Shown: piece by piece, positions 3,189-63,795 of the stretch
Layout of the letters: every line of letters starts with the position of its first letter
Position numbering within the stretch: the first letter of the stretch is position 1
Made by a program: the position numbers and the translations under genes
The notes under the pieces: generated by a model
What the model was told of the DNA's origin: nothing
The model's database searches: none
Seen by the model: only the letters and a program-made list of their open reading frames with translations
From: an uncultured Collinsella sp.
Lineage (GTDB): Bacteria > Actinomycetota > Coriobacteriia > Coriobacteriales > Coriobacteriaceae
Length of the DNA: 64,000 bases
Reading direction: 5' to 3'
Assembly: GCA_900541065.1 (NCBI GenBank)
Contig: UQIE01000006.1
Coordinates: 2,711-66,710 of the forward strand

Positions 3189-3493
3189 GGGAAACCCTTT
3201 CGCGTGGTTGCGGCGCGCGGGTGCGCTCCGCTACGGTACAGTGTTCATCATTGTACCTGTCTGGCGCCAAAAGGGGTGTGCTTACTGCGGCGTTACACGT
3301 CTGCAACATGGATGAAGGTTCGATGGGGTGCGTGCTCGCTGCGATTGGGCATGTCGCATTGCACAAAGACCGTGAACCTTTTGTGGGACGCGCGGTGCCG
3401 TGGTACCATAGCCGAGTTTGTTGTCTTGGTCGGAAACCAAGACGCCTTATGCGCTGATCGGTAACCAGCGCCTGACTAATAAGGAGTCCTACC

Positions 3494-9443: not shown

Positions 9444-10274
9444 ATGAGCGACGAAGAGCTCAAAAAGGTTGCCAACGAGGTAAGGAAGGGCATCGTCACC
9501 GGCGTGCACGCTGCCAAGTCCGGCCATCCGGGCGGTTCGCTCGGCGCTGCCGACATCATGACCTATCTGTACTTTGAGGAAATGAACGTCGACCCGGCCG
9601 ACCCCCGCAAGGCCGACCGCGATCGCTTCGTGCTTTCCAAGGGCCACTGCGCGCCTGGTCTGTACGCCGTGCTCGCCGAGCGCGGGTTCTTCCCCAAGGA
9701 GGATCTCGAGACGCTGCGCCACATCGGCAGCCACCTGCAGGGTCACCCCAACATGAACGACACCCCGGGCGTCGACATGTCCACCGGTTCGCTCGGCCAG
9801 GGCATCTCCGCCGCCGTGGGCATGGCCGTTGCCGCCAAGCACTGGGGCGATGACTATCGCACCTACGCCCTGCTGGGCGACGGCGAGAGCGAGGAGGGCC
9901 AGGTCTGGGAGGCCGCCATGTTTGCCGGCAACCAGCAGCTCGATAACCTCTGCGTGATCGTCGACCACAACGGCCTGCAGATCGACGGCCCCGTCGAGGA
10001 GGTCAACGACCCCATGCCGCTCGCCGACAAGTTCCGCGCCTTCAAGTTCCATGTGGTGGAGCTCGCCGACGGCAACGACTTCGATCAGATTCGCGCCGCT
10101 TTTGCCGAGGCCCGCGCTACCAAGGGCCAGCCGACCGCCATTATCGCCGAGACCATGAAGGGCAAGGGCGTCTCCTTTATGGAGAACCAGGTGGGTTGGC
10201 ACGGTAAGGCCCCCAACGATGAACAGTTTGAGCAGGCCATGGCAGAGCTCACGGCCGCCGGAGAGGAGCTCTAG
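9444..10274 (+). CDS. transketolase, N-terminal (TPP-binding) subunit of a split transketolase
   Basis: 276 aa; GHPGGSLG... and GDGESEEGQVWEA motifs. Confidence 0.9.
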   Translation: MSDEELKKVANEVRKGIVTGVHAAKSGHPGGSLGAADIMTYLYFEEMNVDPADPRKADRDRFVLSKGHCAPGLYAVLAERGFFPKEDLETLRHIGSHLQGHPNMNDTPGVDMSTGSLGQGISAAVGMAVAAKHWGDDYRTYALLGDGESEEGQVWEAAMFAGNQQLDNLCVIVDHNGLQIDGPVEEVNDPMPLADKFRAFKFHVVELADGNDFDQIRAAFAEARATKGQPTAIIAETMKGKGVSFMENQVGWHGKAPNDEQFEQAMAELTAAGEEL

Positions 10275-12691: not shown

Positions 12692-12760
12692 AAGTTGCGG
12701 TGAAATAGGGACTGATTAGGGCTTTTAACTGCTAAAACAGTCCCTATTTCACCGCAACTT
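12692..12760. repeat. Family A palindromic repeat (REP-like), copy A1
   Basis: AAGTTGCGGTGAAATAGGGACTG-N23-CAGTCCCTATTTCACCGCAACTT; 23-bp perfect inverted arms. Confidence 0.85.
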
Positions 12761-15163: not shown

Positions 15164-15201
15164 CAACGGGTCGTCTCTTTTGGGGGCGGCCCGTTTTTTT
15201 T
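15164..15201 (+). terminator. candidate intrinsic terminator after ftsX
   Basis: AACGGG...CCCGTT stem followed by a T8 run. Confidence 0.5.
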
Positions 15202-15285
15202 GATCCCTAGGGGACGGCAGGATTGCGGATCATCGTGGCGCTGGTCTATCTATGTGACCCGCAATCCTGCCGTCCCCTAGGGATC
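15202..15285. repeat. 27-bp perfect inverted repeat with a roughly 29-nt loop
   Basis: GATCCCTAGGGGACGGCAGGATTGCGG...CCGCAATCCTGCCGTCCCCTAGGGATC; lies between ftsX and rnr. Confidence 0.8.
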
Positions 15286-15336
15286 ATTTGGGTAGACTCT
15301 TGGGGTGTAAACGGCCATCGATAGTAAGGAGGCGCC

Positions 15337-17587: not shown

Positions 17588-17639
17588 GGTAAAACCTACC
17601 AAAATAAACCTGTCCCTTTTTGGCAGGTTTACAAGAAAG
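17588..17639. repeat. Family E repeat copy 2, ending about 11 bp upstream of the recombinase start
   Basis: 43/44-bp match to 4089-4140. Confidence 0.7.
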
Positions 17640-17649
17640 CGGGGATGAG

Positions 17650-18255
17650 ATGGCGACGGTGTACGGTTATGCGCGGGTGAGTTCGCGCGATCAAAATCTT
17701 AATCGGCAGCTGGATGCGCTGGGCGCCTATGGTGTGGGCTCGGCGAATATTTATGCCGACCATGCGAGCGGCAAGGACTTCGATCGGCCGCATTATCGCG
17801 AGCTGCTACACGTCCTGGGAGACGGGGACGTGCTGGTGGTGCTTTCTATCGACCGACTTGGCCGTAATTACTCCGAGATTCTTGAGGAATGGCGACGCAT
17901 TACCAAGGAGCTCGGGGTTGCCATTGTGGTGTTGGACATGCCATTGCTTGACACGCGCGCCAGGGCCAGCGGCGCGCCGGATGTGACCAACGCCCTGATT
18001 GCCGATATTGTGCTGCAACTGCTGAGCTACGTGGCGCAGGTGGAGCGCGAGAATATCCATCGGCGCCAGGCGGAGGGAATTGCAGCGGCGCGGGCGCGAG
18101 GGGTCCGTTTCGGTCGACCTCGCAAGCCGTGCCCTCCTCAGTTTGAGCTGGTGCGCGATAGCTATGAGGCGGGCGATATTACCCGCAGCCAGGCAGCAAA
18201 GTGCCTGGGCGTGTGCGTGGGGACGTTCGATCGCTGGATGCGCGAGGCGGGGTAG
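17650..18255 (+). CDS. serine site-specific recombinase, resolvase/invertase family (Hin/Gin/Tn3-resolvase-like), about 200 aa
   Basis: N-terminal YGYARVSSRDQN catalytic-serine motif; C-terminal HTH (ITRSQAAKCLGVCVGTFDRWMRE). Confidence 0.88.
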   Translation: MATVYGYARVSSRDQNLNRQLDALGAYGVGSANIYADHASGKDFDRPHYRELLHVLGDGDVLVVLSIDRLGRNYSEILEEWRRITKELGVAIVVLDMPLLDTRARASGAPDVTNALIADIVLQLLSYVAQVERENIHRRQAEGIAAARARGVRFGRPRKPCPPQFELVRDSYEAGDITRSQAAKCLGVCVGTFDRWMREAG

Positions 18256-19425: not shown

Positions 19426-19612
19426 CGGCTGCGGAAAGTGCGACCCGTTTTGAGCGTTGATTCCGGGATGTGCTTTCCGGTTGAGCGCTCTATCGGAAAT
19501 GACATCCCGTTTCGAGCGCTGATTCTGGGACACGGTTTCCGGTTGAGGGCTCTACGGGAAAGTGGGGACCAGTTTGAGCTTGAAATCTGGGACGCACTTT
19601 CCGCCGGCGGGC
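19426..19612. repeat. tandem repeat: about 31-bp unit x about 5.6 copies, two alternating subtypes (about 62-bp super-unit x 3)
   Basis: Units such as GGAAAGTGCGACCCGTTTTGAGCGTTGATTCC and GGGATGTGCTTTCCGGTTGAGCGCTCTATC; begins directly after the spx-like stop. Confidence 0.8.
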
Positions 19613-21960: not shown

Positions 21961-22028
21961 AAGTTGCGGTGGAATAGTTCCTGTTTGAGGCCAAATAGCC
22001 GACAAGCAGGAACTATTTCACCGCAATT
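21961..22028. repeat. Family A palindromic repeat, copy A2 (arm variant GTTCCTG/CAGGAAC)
   Basis: AAGTTGCGGTGGAATAGTTCCTG...CAGGAACTATTTCACCGCAATTT. Confidence 0.85.
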
Positions 22029-22936: not shown

Positions 22937-22983
22937 GGGCCCCGGTCGGTCATCCCGGCCGGGGCCCTTTTCTTCCGTCCCCA
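22937..22983 (+). terminator. intrinsic terminator after rubredoxin
   Basis: GGGCCCCGG...CCGGGGCCC stem followed by TTTTCTT. Confidence 0.7.
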
Positions 22984-23039: not shown

Positions 23040-23335
23040 GTCTCAATCTGTAACATCTGGCGGCTCAAAACGGGTCTATCTGTTACAGATCGAGACAAAA
23101 GGTTGGAGCTGAAGAAATGTCTCGATCTGTAACATCTAGAAGCGGAAATCGGGTCCACTTGTTACAGATCGAGACAAACCAAAACCATCATTCTCAAAAT
23201 CTCAATCTGTAACATCTGACGGTAAAAACGGGGTCTACGTGTTACAGATTGAGACAAACGGAGCTGTCCCTCGGAATGATCTCGATCTGTAACATCTAGA
23301 CATCAAAAGCGGGTCTAGATGTTACAGATCGAGAC
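23040..23335. repeat. Family D hairpin-repeat array D1: 4 units of 57 bp (16-bp perfect inverted arms GTCTCGATCTGTAACA / TGTTACAGATCGAGAC around a 25-bp core) with 22-24-bp spacers
   Basis: Units at 23040-23096, 23119-23175, 23199-23255 and 23279-23335; not CRISPR (no cas genes, cores and spacers are semi-conserved). Confidence 0.9.
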
Positions 23336-23362: not shown

Positions 23363-24619
23363 TTACATCCCGGTCAACAGCACGACGTCGAGCGCCGTTA
23401 CGACGACACCGATCCCTACGAGCAACGCGTTGAGCGGGCGCGAGTTGGCGTATTTGCCCATGACGCGGGGCGAACTGGTGAGTCGTATGAGCACAAAGAC
23501 CGTAATCGGCAACTGAAGCGACAGCAGCGCCTGACTCCAAATGAGACCCTCAAAAGGATTTGGGACGACCAGGCACGCCGCCACTGCGCCGGCGAAACAT
23601 GCCGCCACCCCAATCGAGGAATGTCGGTCGCGGATGTCGTATTCCTCGTCGAACATGCCCGCGGTGATGGTGCCTGCCGCCATGCCTGCCGTCACACTAC
23701 TCGAGAGGCCCGCAAACAGCAGCGCCACCGCAAAGATTGTCGAGCTTGCTGGGCCCAGAATGGGGGAGAGCGTGTCCGCTGCGACGGCGAGGTCGTCTAC
23801 GACAATGCCGTGCGCAAAGAAGGTCGTTGCGGCCAGGATGACCATGGCCGAGTTGATTGCCCAGCCCACGCCCATCGAAAAGAGCGTGTCGAAGAGCTCA
23901 TAGCGCAGGCGCTCTTCGATAACCTGCTCGCCTTGGCCTTCGAAGTGCATGGATTGGATGACCTCGGAGTGTAGAAAGAGGTTGTGGGGCATAACGACCG
24001 CACCCAGGACACTCACGATAATCGCGGCAGAGCCAGTGGGCATACTGGGCGTGATCCAGCTTGCGGCGGCTTGCGGCCAGTCGACCTTGACTAGTGCAAG
24101 CTCGGCCAAAAACGAGAGTCCTACCACGCCTACGAAGGCGATGATCCAGCGTTCGGCACGCTTGTAGGAGTTCGTCATGAGCATCGCCATCGATACTGCC
24201 GCCACGATGGCGCAGCCCGCACGCACGGGCAGCCCAAAGAGCATTTGAAGGGCAATCGCGCCACCCAGGACTTCGGCCATGGCGGTGGCGATGGTCGCGA
24301 GATAGGCACTGGCGAGCACCGTGCGTCCAACGAAGCGGGGGAGGTAACGTGTCGTGGCCTCGGCAAGACAGGCGCCCGTGGCGATACCCAGGTGCGCCGC
24401 ATTGTGCTGCAGCACAATGAGCATAATCGTGGACAGTGTGACGATCCACAGCAGCGCGTAGCCAAACTGCGAGCCCGCGGCCATATTGGAGGCCCAGTTG
24501 CCCGGGTCGATAAAGCCGACGGTCACGAGCAGCCCGGGGCCGATGTGCCGCGCAATGTCTAGGCCTCCGTGACCACCGGTGCGTCGGCAGCCAAAGTGTT
24601 GTTTGAGATGGTTGAGCAT
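23363..24619 (-). CDS. mntH: NRAMP-family divalent metal (Mn2+/Fe2+) transporter
   Basis: About 418 aa, 11-12 TM; DPGN motif (GFIDPGNWASN); AGGAGC RBS at the MLNHLKQ start. Confidence 0.9.
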   Translation of the reverse strand: MLNHLKQHFGCRRTGGHGGLDIARHIGPGLLVTVGFIDPGNWASNMAAGSQFGYALLWIVTLSTIMLIVLQHNAAHLGIATGACLAEATTRYLPRFVGRTVLASAYLATIATAMAEVLGGAIALQMLFGLPVRAGCAIVAAVSMAMLMTNSYKRAERWIIAFVGVVGLSFLAELALVKVDWPQAAASWITPSMPTGSAAIIVSVLGAVVMPHNLFLHSEVIQSMHFEGQGEQVIEERLRYELFDTLFSMGVGWAINSAMVILAATTFFAHGIVVDDLAVAADTLSPILGPASSTIFAVALLFAGLSSSVTAGMAAGTITAGMFDEEYDIRDRHSSIGVAACFAGAVAACLVVPNPFEGLIWSQALLSLQLPITVFVLIRLTSSPRVMGKYANSRPLNALLVGIGVVVTALDVVLLTGM

Positions 24620-24741: not shown

Positions 24742-24798
24742 GTCTTGATCTGTAACAACTAGGGATGGAAATTGGATCTTACTGTTACAGATTGAGAT
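24742..24798. repeat. Family D hairpin unit D2 (single, slightly degenerate) in the mntH/gltB divergent region
   Basis: TGTCTTGATCTGTAACA-N25-TGTTACAGATTGAGAT. Confidence 0.8.
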
Positions 24799-24982: not shown

Positions 24983-27900
24983 ATGCAGGCAGATTCCGCT
25001 CAGCAGCAGGGCCTTTATCGTCCCGAATTCGACCACGATGCATGTGGCATCGGCGCGCTTGCCGATATCAACGGTGAGCGTCATCACCAGATTCTGGACG
25101 ATGCGCTATCCATTCTGGTCAACTTGGAGCACCGCGGTGGCACGGGACTCGAGAAGAACACCGGCGACGGCGCCGGCATCCTGTTCCAGGTTCCGCATCA
25201 CTTTTTCCGTAAAGAGGCCCAAAAGTGCGGCCAGATTCTGCCGGCAGAGGGCGACTATGGCGTGGCCATGCTGTTCTTCCCGCAGGACGACAAGGGCGTA
25301 GAGGATGCCCGTCGCGTGTTTGAGGAGGGCTGCGCCGAGGCCGGCGTACCGCTGCTCTTTTGGCGCGAGGTACCCGTCGATCCGCACGACCTGGGCGAGA
25401 CGGCCCGCGCCTGCATGCCCACCATCTTACAGGCTTTCCTGGGCCGCCCCGACGACACGCCGGCAGGTGACGCCTTCGAGCGCCGCCTGTACGTGTGCCG
25501 CCGCACCATCGAGAAGAAGGCTGACGCCGAGTTCGCCCTGCGCGACAAGATCTTCTACGTGTGCTCCATGAGCTCGCGCACTATCGTGTACAAGGGCATG
25601 CTCGTCGCCACACAGATGCGCCGCTTCTTCATCGACCTCAACGACGCGGCCGTTAAGACGGCCGTAGCGCTCGTTCACTCGCGCTACTCCACCAACACCA
25701 CGCCCAGCTGGGAGCGCGCACCCCAACCGCTTTATCATCCACAACGGCGAGATCAACACCCTCAAGGGTAATGTCAACTGGATTCGCGCCCGCGAGCCCA
25801 ACCTGTACAGCCCCGTGCTGCAGCACGATCTTGAGCGTGTGATGCCCATCATCAACCGCGAGGGCTCCGATTCCGCGATTCTGGACAACGTGCTCGAGTT
25901 CCTGGTCATGAACGGTCGCCCGCTCACGCGTGCCGCGTCCATGTTGCTGCCCGAGCCGTGGGACCACAACGACAGCCTGAGTGAGGAGCGCCGCGCCTAC
26001 GACGCCTACCAGTCCATGCTCATGGAGCCGTGGGATGGCCCGGCGGCCATCGCCTTTACCGACGGTCGCACGCTGGGCGCTGCCCTCGACCGTAACGGCC
26101 TGCGCCCGGCTCGCTACTACGTGACGCGCGACGGCCGCTTTATGCTGGCAAGCGAGGTGGGCACCATCGAGGTGAGCCCCGAGAACATCCTGACGAGCGG
26201 CTGTCTGGGGCCGGGCCAGATGCTCGAGGTCGACTTTGCCCGCGGCCGCGTGATCTACAACGACGAGCTGCGCGCCCGTTACGCCAAGGAAAAGCCCTAC
26301 CGTGATTGGATTGCCGAGGAGACACTGACCGTCGACGCGCTCGATAGGCCTGCCGCGGCAACGCCCGCCGAGGACGCCGAGGTGCCCGCCGCCGTGCGCA
26401 TGGCCAAGCTCGGGTATCACTGGGATGACGTCGACGAGGTCGTGCGTCCCATGGCCCAGCAGGGCAAGGCGCCGCTCGCCTCGATGGGCATCGATGCGCC
26501 GCTGGCCTGTCTGTCCAAGAAGACGCGCTCCTTCTACGACTATTTCTATCAGCTGTTCGCCCAGGTCACGAACCCGCCCATCGATGCCCTTCGCGAGCAT
26601 ATGGTCACCTCGACCACGCTCTACCTGGGCAACCACGGCAACCTGCTCGAGGACTCCCGTACGGCCTGCCAGCTGGTTCGCCTGGAGCGCCCGTTGCTCA
26701 ACGAGGAGGAGTTTGACCGCATCTGCGCCATCGACCGTGTGGGCTTTAAGACCCGCCGTTTCCGTGCCGTGTACCGCCGTGATGCCGGCGAGGGCGCGCT
26801 GCAGGCTGCGCTCAAGCAGCTTGCAGAGGATGTTGAGGCCGCGGTCCGCGACGGCGTGAACATCGTGGTGTTGAGCGATCGTGCCGCTGCGGGCGAGGTG
26901 CCCGTGCCGTCGCTGCTCGCCGTGGGCTGTGTGCACAACCACCTGATCCGCGCCGGCGTGCGTACCTTTGCCGACATCGTGGTGGAGTGCGGCGACGCCG
27001 TGTCCCCGCACGACTTTGCGGCACTGGTGGGCTACTCCGCGAGCGGCATCTATCCGTACAACGCACACGCGTGCATCCGCGATCTGGCGGCACGCGGCGA
27101 CCTGGATGTGACGGCCGAGCAGGGCATCGCCAACTACAACAAGGCTGCGACCGCCGGCATCGTCTCCATCATGTCCAAGATGGGCATCTCTACGGTGCAG
27201 AGCTACCATTCGGCGCAGATCTTCGAGGCCGTGGGCTTTACGCCGGAGTTCGTTAACGCGTACTTCGCCGGCACGGTGAGCCGTGTGGGCGGTATGGGTG
27301 TCGAGGACGTCGAGCGCGAGCAAAACGAGCGCTATGACGCCGCGCTCGCTATCCTTAAGAGCCCGGCTCCCGATCAGCTGCCCACGCTGGGTCTGACCAA
27401 GTGGCGCCCGCTCGGCGGCGAGGATCACCTCATCGATCCGCAGACTGTCTACCTGTTGCAAACCGCCTGCCGTGAGGACAGCTACGACACCTTTAAGGAG
27501 TACAGCGCCCGCCTGCATCGCACCGGCCGTGCCGTGCGCCTGCGCGACTTGCTCGACTTTGATGCCAGCGGCCGCACTCCGGTGGCACTCGACGAGGTCG
27601 AGTCCGCACTCAACATCGTCCGCCGCTTTAACACCGGCGCCATGTCGTATGGCTCCATCAGCAAAGAGGCACACGAGTGCATGGCCATCGCCATGAACCG
27701 CCTGCATGGCCGTTCCAACTCGGGCGAGGGCGGCGAGGATCCGCGTCGCGAGACCCCGCTGGCTAATGGAGACTCCAAGAACTCCGCCATCAAGCAGGTA
27801 GCAAGTGCGCGCTTTGGCGTGACGAGCCGCTATCTGTGCAGCGCCTTCGAGATTCAGATCAAGATGGCCCAGGGCGCCAAGCCCGGCGAGGGTGGCCACC

Positions 27901-29678
27901 TGCCCGGCAAGAAGGTCTACCCCTGGATCGCCGAGGTCCGTCAGTCCACGCCCGGCATCGGCCTGATCTCGCCTCCGCCGCACCACGATATTTACTCCAT
28001 TGAGGACCTGGCAGAGCTTATCTTCGATCTTAAGAACGCCAACCCCGGTGCGCGCGTGTCGGTCAAGCTGGTCAGCGAGGCCGGCGTCGGCACCATCGCT
28101 ACCGGTGTGGCCAAGGGTGCTGCCGACAAGATCTTGATCAGCGGCCACAATGGCGGCTCGGGTGCCGCTGCGCGCGACTCTATCTGGCATGTGGGTCTGC
28201 CGTTGGAGCTTGGCCTCGCCGAGGCTCAGCAGACGCTGCTGCAAAACGGCCTGCGCTCACGCGTGGTGCTCGAGGCCGACGGCAAGCTCATGGACGGCAC
28301 CGATGTTGCCGTCGCCTGCTTGCTGGGCGCCGAGGAGTTTGGCTTTGCGACCATGCCGCTCATCTCCATGGGCTGCCTCATGCAGCGCGACTGCCAGCAG
28401 GACACCTGCCCGGCCGGCATCGCCACGCAGAACTGCCGCCTGCGTCGCGGCTTCCGCGGCAAGCCCGAGCACGTTGAGCACTTTATGCTCTTTGTTGCCG
28501 AGCAGCTGCGCGAGGTCATGGCGAGCCTGGGCTTCCGCACCGTCGACGAGATGGTCGGCCATCCCGAGTGCTTGCGCCAGATCGAGGTCCCGGGCAACCG
28601 CAAGGCCAACCTGCTCGATCTGTCGCCCGTGCTGGCAAGCGCGACCTGCGAGTTCGGTGCCCATATTCCGGGCGCCGACGGTCGCCACTTCCTGCCGCAG
28701 ATGGCCGCGGACAGCGAGCTCGACAAGACGCTCGACTCCACGTTGTTTGTGCCCTATACGGCCGACGCCCGTGCGCATCTGCGTCCGATTCGCTTCCGCG
28801 CCGATATCGCCAACGTCAACCGCTGCGTGGGCACCATCTTGGGCAACGCGGTGACCAAGGCGCATCCCGAGGGCCTGCCCGCCGGCTCCATCACCATCGA
28901 TTGCGATGGTTCGGCCGGCCAGAGCTTTGGCGCCTTCCTGCCGCGCGGCATTACGCTCAACGTGTGCGGCGACGCCAACGACTACTTTGGCAAGGGACTT
29001 TCGGGCGGCGAGGTGTCGGTGCGCCCCAACCCGCATGCGACCTACAAGTTCGACGAGAACATCATCGTGGGCAACGTTGCGTTCTTTGGTGCCACGAGCG
29101 GCCGCGGCTTCATTAACGGCCTGGCGGGCCAGCGTTTTGCCGTACGCAACTCCGGTGCCACCGTGGTGGTCGAGGGCTGCGGCAACCATGGCTGCGAGTA
29201 CATGACGGGCGGTCTGGCACTCATCCTGGGCGAGGTCGGGCAGAATTTTGCCGCCGGCATGACAGGCGGCGTGGCCTACGTCTTTGACCAGTACGGCACG
29301 CTCGACGCCCGCGTGAACCACGAGAGCGTGGAGCTCAAGGCCCCGACGGCCGGTGAGCTGGCGCAGATTCGCGAGCTCATCCAGGAGCACGTGGACGCGA
29401 CGCAGAGTCCGCGCGGAATTAAGCTGCTCTACAGCTTCGACTCGATGAGCAAGCACTTTGTGAAGGTCATTCCGACCGAGTACGAGCGCGTGCTGGCGAT
29501 TGTCGCCGCGGGTGAGGCTGCCGGCAAGACGCATGCGCAGGCCGAGGAGCTGGCGTTTGACATCGTGACCGGTCGCGCGAGCGCCGCGGATGTCGCTCGC
29601 TTTGATGTTGCGGGCAGTGCTGCGGGCGCTGCGTCCGTGGCTGCCAGCTCTGTTGCTTCGACCAAGAAGGAGGCGTAA
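24983..29678 (+). pseudogene. gltB: glutamate synthase large subunit gltB interrupted by a frameshift (two ORFs, 24983-25771 and 25815-29678)
   Basis: N-terminal amidotransferase domain (MQADSAQQQGLYRPEFDHDACGIGA...) ends out of frame at ...SWERA; the conserved HPNRFIIHNGEINTLKGN continues in the +1 frame from about 25718; the rest (FMN, Fe-S and GXGXXG domains) is intact. Confidence 0.85.
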
Positions 29679-31176: not shown

Positions 31177-31214
31177 AAGAACGTCCCCAATGACTAGTCA
31201 TTGGGGACGTTCTT
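31177..31214. repeat. Family C: perfect 38-bp palindrome AAGAACGTCCCCAATGACTAGTCATTGGGGACGTTCTT followed by a T-run; likely bidirectional terminator for gltD
   Basis: Related GTCCCC-containing units at 360-480, 31215-31250, 45640-45690 and 57095-57150. Confidence 0.8.
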
Positions 31215-32280: not shown

Positions 32281-32418
32281 GTCTCGATCTGTAACGTTTA
32301 GAGGCCGTTTGGGGCCGTAACTGTTACAGATTGAGACAAAGAGGTGCAATGCTGCACGAATGTCTCGATTTGTAACGTTTGGCGGTCAAAAATCGGTCTT
32401 CCTGTTACAGATCAAGAC
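32281..32418. repeat. Family D hairpin-repeat array D3 (2 units, cores in opposite orientation)
   Basis: Units at 32281-32337 and 32362-32418; arms GTCTCGATCTGTAACG / TGTTACAGATTGAGAC. Confidence 0.9.
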
Positions 32419-32444: not shown

Positions 32445-33515
32445 ATGGCCCATTTCTCCGATGTGGTGGTGATGGAAGTGTCTAATACCGTTCTTAAACA
32501 CAAGTATGCAACACGTAACACCTTGGCGCGAAATAGGATGCTAGCCAGGCTCACGGAGGCGGCTGAACAAGGCGTGCTGCTTGTGACACACGACAATGCC
32601 GAGCTCATGTGGCTGCGGCGTCATGTGGGAACCGATGATATTGCGGAGCCCGAGCCGTATTTGTTCTGTTTTCAACATGATTGGGATGCGTTGACGCCGG
32701 CGGAGCGAGCGCTGCGTACCATCAAAGGGCTTGCGGAGTTTCATCCCGATTGGGCGTTTTGGGGTTATGACGCGGCACTTTTGTGGGGTTTGGAGGTGCC
32801 GAATGATCTGCTTGGGCCGCGATTTCTTGTTAAGACAGGTTACTCGGTGCCGCTGAGTGCAGGATGTCGGCTGTTGCGTCCGCAGGCGGCGGGTGCGCTT
32901 GAACAAGTCGACGGCGTGCGGGCGACGCCGTTTTGGCGCACGGTAGAGGATTGCCTGCTGCGCGCGCCGTTTTCGTATGGCTTGGCGATTGCCGATTCTG
33001 CGTTGCGAGCAAAGGGCGTATCGCGCGATGACTTTTGTGAGCGGCTTCGTATGGATTGTGAAGGCAAGCGCGGGCATCGCAGAGCGCAGGTGATTGCGTC
33101 GTATGCGGACGGGCTGTCCGAAAACGGCGGCGAGTCTCGATTTCGGGCGTTCTTTATTGCGTACGGTTTTCCGGTGCCAGAGTTGCAGGTGGAGTTCCGT
33201 GATCCGCTCAATCCGACCAGCGTGTTTCGAGTCGACTATTTTTGGCGGCTCGAGGACGGGACATGTGTCATCGGCGAGCTCGATGGAAAGGGAAAGTATG
33301 CCTTACAGAACGACGAGGGCCGGGAGTCGGTCGACCCATTCGTGGCAGAACGTCAACGGGAGTCCCATCTGACGATGCTCGGACATAAGGTACTGAGGTT
33401 TACGTTTGATGAGCTCAAGAACCCGGGGAAGCTGGCTGAAAAGATGAGACTGGCGGGCATTCCGCGACGGGCCGATTTGGCTGAGGAATGGAGACGCCAG
33501 TGGTATGGGTGCTAA
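32445..33515 (+). CDS. hypothetical protein with a C-terminal DUF559/PDDEXK-like endonuclease-fold segment (resembles AbiEi_4 plus DUF559 proteins)
   Basis: C-terminus ...ESHLTMLGHKVLRFTFDELKNPG resembles the Vsr/DUF559 fold tail; flanked on both sides by family D arrays. Confidence 0.45.
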   Translation: MAHFSDVVVMEVSNTVLKHKYATRNTLARNRMLARLTEAAEQGVLLVTHDNAELMWLRRHVGTDDIAEPEPYLFCFQHDWDALTPAERALRTIKGLAEFHPDWAFWGYDAALLWGLEVPNDLLGPRFLVKTGYSVPLSAGCRLLRPQAAGALEQVDGVRATPFWRTVEDCLLRAPFSYGLAIADSALRAKGVSRDDFCERLRMDCEGKRGHRRAQVIASYADGLSENGGESRFRAFFIAYGFPVPELQVEFRDPLNPTSVFRVDYFWRLEDGTCVIGELDGKGKYALQNDEGRESVDPFVAERQRESHLTMLGHKVLRFTFDELKNPGKLAEKMRLAGIPRRADLAEEWRRQWYGC

Positions 33516-33557
33516 GGGGTGCGGCTGACGCGGGTGTGGTTGTTCCTACCGAGTTTG

Positions 33558-33774
33558 TCTCGATCTGTAACAACAAGGGGCCGTTTGGCCTCGTAACTGT
33601 TACAGATCGAGACAGAAGGTTGGCTGCCGCTAAAAGATCTCAATCTGTAACATCTAGAGGCCGAAAACCTGTCTAACTGTTACAGATCGAGACAAAGGTT
33701 GGACGAGGTGCCGAAAGATCTTGTTCTGTAACATTTGGCTGCTAAAACCCGGTCCACCTGTTACAGATTGAGAC
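33558..33774. repeat. Family D hairpin-repeat array D4 (3 units)
   Basis: Units at 33558-33614, 33638-33694 and 33718-33774; spacers contain AAGGTTGG as in D1. Confidence 0.9.
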
Positions 33775-36245: not shown

Positions 36246-36290
36246 GGCGAGTCCTCGTTTCTGGTCAATCCTTCAAATGCCTCACCCTCA

Positions 36291-36358
36291 GTTGCGGTGA
36301 AATAGTTCCTGATTGAAGGCTTAAAGCGTTTAAACCGGAACTATTTCACCGCAACTTC
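36291..36358. repeat. Family A palindromic repeat, copy A3, inside the cop operon between copZ and csoR
   Basis: AGTTGCGGTGAAATAGTTCCTG...CCGGAACTATTTCACCGCAACTT. Confidence 0.85.
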
Positions 36359-39270: not shown

Positions 39271-39488
39271 GTCTCAATCTGTAACAACTAGACCCGTTTT
39301 TGTCGAGTAACTGTTACAGATCGAGACATTACATCGAGCCACAACTTAACGTCTCAACCTGTAACGCCTAAGGACCGTTTTTCCTGCTAGATGTTACAGA
39401 TCGAGACAAACCGTCCGCGGTCAACTCAAATGTCTTGATTTGTAACATCTAGAGAGGTTTTTGACCCCTTACTGTTACAGATCGAGAC
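39271..39488. repeat. Family D hairpin-repeat array D5 (3 units)
   Basis: Units at 39271-39327, 39351-39407 and 39432-39488. Confidence 0.9.
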
Positions 39489-42928: not shown

Positions 42929-42985
42929 GTCTTGTTCTATAACATTTGGACCCGGTTTTGCCCTGCATCTGTTACAGATTGACAC
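42929..42985. repeat. Family D hairpin unit D6 (single, degenerate)
   Basis: TGTCTTGTTCTATAACA-N-TGTTACAGATTGACAC. Confidence 0.65.
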
Positions 42986-45491: not shown

Positions 45492-45635
45492 TGGTGCAAT
45501 GGGGCCAGGTTAATCTGCATCAACGTCTTGAAGTTGCGGTGGAATACGGACTGTTTTGGCCTTTTGAGCGGCTTTGCAGTCCCTATTTCACCGCAACTCA
45601 TGATTGGTGCAAACAAACCTGACCCCATTGCACCA
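45492..45635. repeat. Family B MITE-like element carrying a nested family A repeat (A4 at 45531-45598)
   Basis: Left end TGGTGCAATGGGGCCAGGTTAATCTGCATCA, right end TGGTGCAAACAAACCTGACCCCATTGCACCA; the family A copy has one arm mismatch. Confidence 0.8.
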
Positions 45636-63726: not shown

Positions 63727-63795
63727 AAGTTGCGGTGAAATAGGGACTGTTTGGCGGTTTTAAACGCTCAAACAGTCCCTATTTCACCGCAATTT
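63727..63795. repeat. Family A palindromic repeat, copy A5, between convergent genes
   Basis: AAGTTGCGGTGAAATAGGGACTG...CAGTCCCTATTTCACCGCAATTT. Confidence 0.85.

Follow-up and report, generated by a model that had tools for sequence, protein, structure and literature searches.

Positions 23040–23335 of a 64-kb window from an uncultured Collinsella sp. (contig UQIE01000006.1; the window is the whole stretch of DNA analysed here, G+C 61.6%) hold four dyad-symmetric units in tandem, and the locus raises the question of what kind of element is repeated there and what preserves it. The element, termed family D and numbered D1 to D6 by array, is tentatively read as an interspersed repeat resembling the bacterial interspersed mosaic elements (BIMEs) and repetitive extragenic palindromic (REP) sequences, which may be kept as strictly spaced protein-binding sites on duplex DNA and which appears to have once been mobile.

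In the window, GTCTCGATCTGTAACA at up to two mismatches has 25 matches, while 0.01 are expected from dinucleotide shuffles. At up to three mismatches there are 28 arms, which make up exactly 14 units (arm, 25 bp and reverse-complement arm) at six intergenic places (Table 1), and a profile hidden Markov model built from 93 non-redundant units finds with nhmmer the same 14 units and none besides. The dispersed, dyad-symmetric repeat family described in the initial annotation is thus real, and its total of 14 units, in the flagged array and five other places, is exactly reproduced by arm pairing. The spacer lengths of 22–24 bp also hold, as does the presence of both core orientations, where eight units have an A-run and six a T-run at the centre and both types occur within D3 and D4. 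The period is regular as claimed, but its value was put slightly too high at about 81 bp, as it is 79, 80 and 80 bp in D1 and 80–81 bp in the remaining arrays, and Tandem Repeats Finder gives an 80-bp period at 23041–23335. Perfect 16-bp inverted arms, which had been ascribed to the family as a whole, are found in two of the 14 units (23119 and 33557), while the other units carry one to four mismatches between the arms.

The same anatomy is seen in 379 units from 0.9 Mb of retrieved DNA, which form 151 arrays of one to eight units belonging to about 40 orthologous locus families. Each unit is a 57-bp dyad that begins RTCTCR, in which the arm RTCTCRATCTGTAACA and its reverse complement enclose a 25-bp core with the pattern nnTAG-N6-(AAA or TTT)-N6-CTAnn. 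Information content is nearly 2 bits at 12 of the 16 arm positions, and the terminal inverted repeats comprise 16 nearly invariant base pairs, or up to 21 bp if TAG is counted. With units oriented by their centre, the core consensus is tcTAG..Gcc.AAAa.cgGgTCTAgc, and the apparent mirror symmetry of the unoriented profile arises because the two orientations of a slightly asymmetric core are mixed. Units are flanked by 3–4 A/T-rich bases, most commonly GTTT or AAAC, and occur singly or in head-to-tail arrays with linkers of 22–24 bp. The spacers had been called semi-conserved, which agrees with their consensus (AAACgg..N..cCGAAAy) and with their being common to several species and arrays. The core is 25 bp long in 377 of the 379 units and the period is 79–81 bp in 227 of 228 neighbour pairs (79, 80 and 81 bp in 8, 131 and 88 pairs, respectively). 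Arms recur every ~40.5 bp in alternating orientation, where the 25-bp and 23–24-bp intervals between them are conserved in length and largely free in sequence, and lone arms are nearly absent (23 apparent orphans among 776 arms, mostly artefacts). With genes called heuristically by picking open reading frames (ORFs) on their third-position G+C content (GC3), all units are intergenic, none lying inside a called gene, and the classified locus families are 12 convergent, 7 divergent and 8 tandem.

The arms are conserved in place. At loci retrieved by an exact match to arm positions 7–16, arms have diverged in place by 1.9%, cores by 6.3%, spacers by 8.0% and 40-bp flanks by 10.2%, and in a bias-reduced subset (loci retrievable via another array) the values are 2.3% for arms, 4.7% for cores and 8.7% for flanks, the arms diverging 2–4 times more slowly than cores and flanks. 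Across 230 orthologous unit pairs, arms show 3.6% and cores 7.6% divergence (Fisher p = 4e-24), while positions 2–4 and 54–56, which lie outside the search pattern, show ~1% and the central W3 (A/T) tract 0.7%. Changes in the arms cluster at the CpG (positions 5–6) and at position 1. Each locus passes on its own arm variants (ATCTCG and GTCTCA, for instance), and frequent gene conversion thus does not account for the conservation. The simplest reading of these divergence patterns is purifying selection, with the sequence of the arms, the central tract and the lengths as its targets.

Base pairing between the arms, by contrast with their sequence, is not upheld by compensatory changes. Where arm positions are polymorphic (1/57, 5/53 and 6/52), Watson-Crick pairs are as common as shuffling predicts and G:T and A:C occur about equally often, while the 93 non-redundant units have 76.0% paired cells where shuffles have 78.6%, all 500 shuffles reaching at least the observed value. 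Within the core, symmetric pairing falls short of expectation, offset pairing gives no clean signal, and an arm-local 7-bp mini-hairpin (positions 1–7 with 17–23) pairs at chance frequency. Folding in silico, which had been proposed as a check, does yield very stable single strands (z = -14.6 for the array and -20 to -38 kcal/mol per unit), but any unit built from a conserved 16-mer and its inverted copy will fold in this way automatically; a hairpin that is predicted to be stable is no evidence for a structured RNA.

The element may act as duplex DNA, where each arm would be a half-site for a sequence-specific, probably dimeric or multimeric protein. The duplex is favoured over a stem because the fixed loop and linker lengths are unneeded by a stem and needed for phased binding to a duplex. 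The fixed spacing, together with the flexible CTAG and A-tract steps, would permit cooperative, phased binding or wrapping along the array, in a mode of action that may be analogous to that of the E. coli BIMEs, which are platforms for IHF, DNA gyrase and Pol I. Kinetics disfavour the extrusion of a cruciform with a 25-nt centre. The binder could alternatively be a domesticated protein of the transposase or recombinase type, and candidate roles include nucleoid organisation, supercoil management at 3' ends and local regulation. Since the family is dispersed, its original spread was probably that of a small, mobile palindromic element, which would now be largely immobile.

Several points weigh against the duplex-binding interpretation. 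The binding itself is putative, as is the partner protein, and a stretch of 16 invariant bases exceeds the usual half-site of a transcription factor and rather recalls the end recognised by a transposase. The context analysis depends on crude GC3-based gene calls, while the conservation estimates carry some ascertainment bias from the exact-pattern retrieval, many ortholog pairs being non-independent and the bias-reduced sample small (24 directed pairs). The argument from missing covariation is weakened because a 16-bp stem tolerates single mismatches, and the very stable predicted single-strand fold would also suit a role as single-stranded DNA or RNA.

Such a role at the RNA level, in which co-transcribed long hairpins would serve as REP-like 3'-end stabilisers, RNase III sites or attenuators between co-transcribed genes, is judged unlikely. 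Apart from the strong predicted folding, it would suit the many arrays that lie at 3' ends (the convergent class being 12 of 27 classified locus families) or between co-directional genes, as well as array D3, whose end is 27 bp upstream of a probable ATG at 32446 and which is thus probably in a 5' untranslated region. However, units also occupy divergent promoter regions (D2 and D6), their orientation is unbiased with respect to transcription (17 A-type to 12 T-type), and a stem needs neither 16 invariant positions nor a loop and linker of fixed length. Compensatory changes are missing, the mismatch rate is that of independent arms, and G:T is not favoured over A:C. Rfam gives nothing at the units at the gathering threshold, and with an E-value threshold only generic microRNA-hairpin models, far below their cut-offs. 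The more specific proposal of the initial annotation, that the hairpins are terminators, is unsupported for want of both a U-tract and compensatory pairing: no U-tract lies 3' of the units, where array ends are mostly followed by AAAC, and a terminator scan gives 2 sites against 2.3 expected, neither of them a unit stem, while promoters are likewise without excess. D1 in particular is not the terminator of the neighbouring rubredoxin-like gene because this gene has its own ordinary terminator hairpin at 22939–22975, a GC-rich hairpin followed by a T-run, which lies downstream of the rubredoxin-like ORF and upstream of D1.

The arrays are old and fixed in position, and they gain and lose whole ~80-bp units via unequal or ectopic homologous recombination between arms. 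Comparison of strains does reveal array expansion and contraction, which had been proposed as something to look for, as length differences between orthologous arrays are quantised at 0 (78 cases), +/-1 (8), +/-79–81 (73) and +/-159–161 bp (43), with a few larger multiples. By lineage, the orthologs of D1 have 4, 4, 3, 3, 2, 2, 2, 2 and 2 units, while those of D2 have 1–4, those of D3 2–3 and those of D6 1–2. Orthologous D1 arrays possess the same spacers together with chimeric cores, which look like recombination products between arms of different units; unequal recombination between arms is indicated by such chimeric cores and by differences between orthologous arrays that amount almost exclusively to entire ~80-bp units. 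The locus L012 contains a two-unit internal duplication, with identical cores two units apart. Spacers are also common to neighbouring arrays (D1/D2 and D3/D4), where AAACCAAAACCGTCC.GCAGAA. is present in D1 and D2, either side of Nramp, and AAAGGTTGGACG.GGTGCCGAAAG is present in D4 of the window and D3 of the related contig L132 (arrays at 1851–2068 and 9501–9716). The sharing of spacers by arrays that flank one gene suggests ectopic exchange or local seeding of arrays.

These fixed positions bear on the rather unlikely alternative of a still-active selfish element, either a REPIN-like doublet (two inverted REP copies) mobilised by a RAYT (REP-associated tyrosine transposase, a Y1 transposase) or a DDE-mobilised minimal miniature inverted-repeat transposable element (MITE) of two terminal inverted repeats, in which the arms would be conserved since the transposase needs them. 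Dispersal over many unrelated intergenic sites does imply mobility at some time, the long invariant arms (up to 21 bp with TAG) resemble transposase ends, and the arms are essentially never single. However, the loci are identical in the sampled Collinsella lineages, where only unit number varies and no empty/filled polymorphism is seen: the minimum is one unit, and no empty orthologous site is found among the about 40 locus families, these loci having been chosen for carrying units. Conservation of the arms in place relative to their own cores and flanks is unexpected for a neutral resident copy. No consistent target-site duplication is present at the unit flanks, whose two sides are usually reverse complements and not direct repeats, and the family D profiles contain neither a REP-type GTAG at the stem foot nor a hairpin within the arm. 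Searches by tblastn with IS200, IS608 and E. coli RAYT queries, which are weak evidence, give no Y1 transposase below E = 0.4 in the 0.9 Mb around the units, and Pfam scans of the 24 ORFs at 15–46 kb of the window find no transposase, integrase or cas gene. Candidates for recent transposition, with near-identical cores and unrelated flanks, were rejected, as the inspected cases are shifted orthologs or within-array rearrangements. In three relatives without family D (L133, L134 and L136), the junctions are insufficiently syntenic to define element boundaries.

A very improbable proposal is that the cores are tiny invertible segments flipped by recombination or hairpin-mediated template switching between the inverted arms, which had been suggested because both orientations occur between indistinguishable arms, sometimes in one array. 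Adjacent units have the same core orientation in 107 cases and the opposite in 91, but none of 247 orthologous unit pairs with conserved flanks matches better when the core is inverted, and a 25-bp segment is too short for recombinase-mediated inversion. Since the arms are mutual reverse complements, the two core orientations amount to a slightly asymmetric unit sitting either way. Internal units tend to share their orientation with the neighbouring spacer edges (A-A-A in 24 and T-T-T in 21 of about 95), and this correlation points instead to oriented 80-bp blocks that were duplicated in tandem and then mixed by recombination between units; in-place flipping over very long times finds no support. 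Least credible of all is a CRISPR-like or other ruler-built array with cores or spacers as acquired sequences, which would share the regularly interspaced conserved repeat and the segments of constant length and variable sequence but, in line with the verdict of the initial annotation, is contradicted by the absence of cas genes among the 24 scanned ORFs, by arms that alternate in orientation, by cores and spacers with a consensus of their own (TAG..AAA..CTA and AAAC..GAAA), by short, semi-conserved, inherited spacers that are kept between species and recur between arrays, and by many small dispersed arrays at about one per 10 kb, where CRISPR arrays are confined to one or few loci.

Family D belongs to a known kind, the interspersed intergenic palindromic repeats, but lacks defining features of each specific family. 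In behaviour it is closest to REP/BIME and to the variable number tandem repeats (VNTRs) of the mycobacterial interspersed repetitive unit (MIRU) type, and among the options considered in the initial annotation a BIME/REP-like element or an uncharacterised protein-binding array fits best. With REP/BIME it shares palindromic, strictly extragenic units in many copies (14 in 64 kb and 379 in 0.9 Mb), which are clustered in alternating orientation with fixed-length linkers, vary in copy number between strains and are enriched at 3' ends. No sequence similarity to them has been found, however, and family D lacks the conserved 5' GT[A/G]G head of REP, whose stems are imperfect where the family D arms are invariant over 16 bp. 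Defined motifs make up the linkers of BIMEs, while those of family D are fixed in length only, variable in sequence and without a motif match, and family D additionally has a fixed-length 25-bp core of variable sequence and also sits in divergent promoter regions. The REPIN-RAYT system of Pseudomonas and E. coli likewise consists of hundreds of dispersed doublets of inverted copies that can form one long hairpin, but each REP in it is a small hairpin recognised as single-stranded DNA, whereas family D has no arm-internal hairpin or compensation and its loci are fixed across species.

The mycobacterial MIRU-VNTRs are, like family D, intergenic tandem arrays of 40–100-bp units that are dispersed over the operon-spacing regions of an actinobacterial genome; in both, the number of units differs between lineages, and both would lend themselves to typing. 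MIRUs are, however, non-palindromic and built as small overlapping ORFs, while family D is a dyad without a consistent reading frame, because its period is a mix of 80 and 81 bp. Small MITE-like repeats (Correia/NEMIS of Neisseria, BOX and RUP of Streptococcus pneumoniae, and ERIC) are also short, non-coding and intergenic with terminal inverted repeats, and BOX has a modular build in which the count of internal boxB units varies, but these elements are 100–150 bp or longer with conserved interiors, in contrast to the 57 bp and variable interior of family D. Correia and RUP furthermore have TA target duplications and recognisable parent insertion sequence (IS) families, where family D shows no target-site duplication and no known parent. 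In the sopC region of the F plasmid, SopB binds an inverted repeat in each of 12 tandem 43-bp units; this region resembles family D in its strictly periodic tandem units with an inverted-repeat binding site and in its conservation at the sequence level, with no sign that pairing is under selection. Centromere-like and iteron arrays, however, occur once per replicon beside the genes of their binding proteins, whereas family D has about one array per 10 kb and no associated gene. The attC sites of integrons have R''/R' boxes (RYYYAAC ... GTTRRRY), with cassettes between the sites and intI nearby. Family D was rejected as attC, as its CTGTAAC/GTTACAG deviate from the R-box consensus and lie inside the arms, not at the site ends, the spacers are 23 bp long and no integrase is nearby.

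As far as sampled, family D is restricted to the genus Collinsella (Coriobacteriia), which is a working statement because few outgroups were sampled. Scanning one genome per GTDB species with the pattern ATCTGTAACR-N24-26-YGTTACAGAT gives at least 120 matching stretches, where every named one among the matches listed is Collinsella (C. aerofaciens or many uncultured species) and the remaining matches listed are unnamed or evidently mis-binned metagenome-assembled genomes, while viral contigs give 11 matches only and are uninformative. The family is thus present across Collinsella and is not the local duplication that absence from the lineage would have implied. Among further relatives, whose contigs were picked via Nramp homologues, L132, L135 and L137 (89–93% nucleotide identity to the window) have arrays at the same four loci, D1 to D4. 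Family D was not found in L133 (~85% identity, 21 kb examined), in the Olsenella-like L134 (78% identity, 21 kb examined) or in the Atopobiaceae contig L136 (76.5% identity, 12 kb examined). No published description of the family was found in full-text literature, which was also searched with the arm sequence itself; the catalogue of candidate structured RNAs by Fremin and Bhatt lists Collinsella motifs (PMC8040213), which may overlap with family D.

The window also contains a second hairpin family, family A, with a 67-bp unit in which the arm AGTTGCGGTGAAATAG and its reverse complement enclose 35 bp. The inner 6 bp fall into two subtypes (GGACTG...CAGTCC or TTCCTG...CAGGAA), with the same subtype on either side of a variable 23-bp core whose centre is an A/T run. 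Copies are single and form no arrays, and 27 of them are present in the 0.9 Mb, with the 35-bp inter-arm distance in 25 of the 27. The modular relationship between the two families that had been proposed holds in part, as a likeness of architecture (invariant arms, fixed-length variable core and A/T-run centre, with TTTGGCGG shared by some cores) and not as demonstrated homology.

Table 1. Coordinates of family D arrays and units and of family A copies in the 64-kb window
Feature	Position	Strand	Description
Array D1	23040..23335	.	4 units; spacers 22, 23 and 23 bp; between a convergent rubredoxin/flavin-reductase operon and the Nramp gene (stop codon at 23363)
Unit D1.1	23040..23096	.	A-run core (TCTGGCGGCTCAAAACGGGTCTATC); single A:C inter-arm mismatch; nhmmer 57.2 bits
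Unit D1.2	23119..23175	.	A-run core; both arms equal to consensus and perfectly complementary; nhmmer 58.3 bits
Unit D1.3	23199..23255	.	A-run core; arm variants ATCTCAATC / GATTGAGAC; nhmmer 51.6 bits
Unit D1.4	23279..23335	.	A-run core; palindrome reaches 22 bp into core (TCTAGAC/GTCTAGA); nhmmer 57.9 bits
Array D2	24742..24798	.	Single unit, A-type core; divergent region between Nramp start and glutamate synthase start
Array D3	32281..32418	.	2 units; 24-bp spacer; between co-directional genes
Unit D3.1	32281..32337	.	T-run core; 49.8 bits
Unit D3.2	32362..32418	.	A-run core (TTTGGCGGTCAAAAATCGGTCTTCC); 45.5 bits
Array D4	33557..33774	.	3 units (T, A, A cores); spacers 23 and 24 bp; between co-directional genes, with amidohydrolase gene downstream of array
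Unit D4.1	33557..33613	.	T-run core; perfect arms
Unit D4.2	33637..33693	.	A-run core; 58.0 bits
Unit D4.3	33718..33774	.	A-run core; 3 mismatches in left arm
Array D5	39271..39488	.	3 units, all T-run on + strand; spacers 23 and 24 bp; between two minus-strand genes (P-type ATPase start, Ser/Thr kinase stop)
Unit D5.1	39271..39327	.	T-run core
Unit D5.2	39351..39407	.	T-run core; 3 mismatches in left arm
Unit D5.3	39432..39488	.	T-run core
Array D6	42929..42985	.	Single, more degenerate unit; T-run core; nhmmer 31.8 bits; divergent region between FHA-domain gene and DEAD-box helicase gene
Family A copy	12693-12759		
Family A copy	21962-22028		
Family A copy	36290-36356		
Family A copy	45532-45598		
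Family A copy	63728-63794		

The neighbours of the family D arrays are housekeeping genes (flavin reductase/rubredoxin, Nramp, glutamate synthase, amidohydrolase, CopA/CopZ/CsoR, Ser/Thr kinase, FHA protein, DEAD helicase and RNase R). The 24 ORFs scanned with Pfam belong to housekeeping families, together with one small serine recombinase (17620–18255, + strand; Resolvase N-terminal domain, E = 9e-30, with a C-terminal helix-turn-helix), which is encoded between RNase R and a VanZ-like gene. This recombinase gene is syntenic in L132 and L137 and appears, from its sequence context, to be a conserved chromosomal gene outside any obvious mobile element. It was rejected as a partner of family D, as the segments between neighbouring arrays are collinear in all orthologs and the half-site spacing is unfitting, a distance of 41 bp between half-site centres not being compatible with resolvase or invertase sites.

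Beside D2, a segment of ~870 bp between Nramp and the array (window position about 24630, upstream of the Nramp start) is absent in the window and present in L007, L028, L133 and L137; this insertion, a candidate IS at first sight in L007 and L028, was rejected as such, as it codes for a protein of the phosphoglycerate mutase type (His_Phos_1). In the window, the large subunit of glutamate synthase is split into two ORFs (24983–25771 and 25815–29678, + strand; 262 and 1287 aa) and in L135 into 831 and 714 aa, while it is a single gene of 1556–1566 aa in L132, L133 and L137; the split may reflect a frameshift or stop, pseudogene formation or faulty assembly. A perfect 19-bp palindrome without a loop (31177–31214) lies just after the small subunit of glutamate synthase. 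An inverted repeat at 15201–15286, some 50 bp upstream of the RNase R ORF (15337), has 32-nt arms (97% complementary) and a 22-nt gap (TGATCCCTAGGGGACGGCAGGATTGCGGATCA...), and may be another repeat family. Between an ArsC/glutaredoxin-like gene and tRNA-Gln/tRNA-Glu, a tandem repeat at 19444–19603 (62-bp period, about 2 copies, 74–82% identity) has no sequence relation to family D. An L31-Coriobacteria ribosomal protein leader (Rfam RF03128) is found at 3451–3486 (+ strand), with 36 bits against a gathering score of 33.

Collinsella ranks among the human gut's most prevalent actinobacterial genera and among those richest in species, and to our knowledge almost nothing is known of its non-coding genome, in which family D, extrapolated from the window, may occupy roughly one of ten intergenic regions. 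With 1–4 units per locus by lineage, the arrays are natural VNTR markers that could support strain typing of Collinsella in metagenomes, while their regular repeat-spacer layout is likely to mislead CRISPR finders. Of 73 contig ends in the retrieved Collinsella assemblies, nine lie within 200 bp of a family D unit (in L011, L019, L035, L061, L073, L076, L077, L084 and L119), a mild, few-fold excess over unit density which suggests that the arrays may break short-read assemblies. The main point of interest is the constraint on arm sequence and spacing without constraint on pairing, which suggests a DNA-protein system that has gone unrecognised and speaks against neutral junk DNA. In its furthest-reaching form, which is regarded as quite unlikely, this would be a dedicated DNA-binding system of Collinsella acting on several hundred arrays of alternating 16-bp half-sites (~40.5-bp pitch), a lineage-specific nucleoid-organising or supercoil-managing scaffold that possibly employs a domesticated transposase or recombinase, with family A as a sister system of different specificity. 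If this is true, the strain-variable array length (1–8 units) would tune local chromosome structure or the expression of flanking genes.

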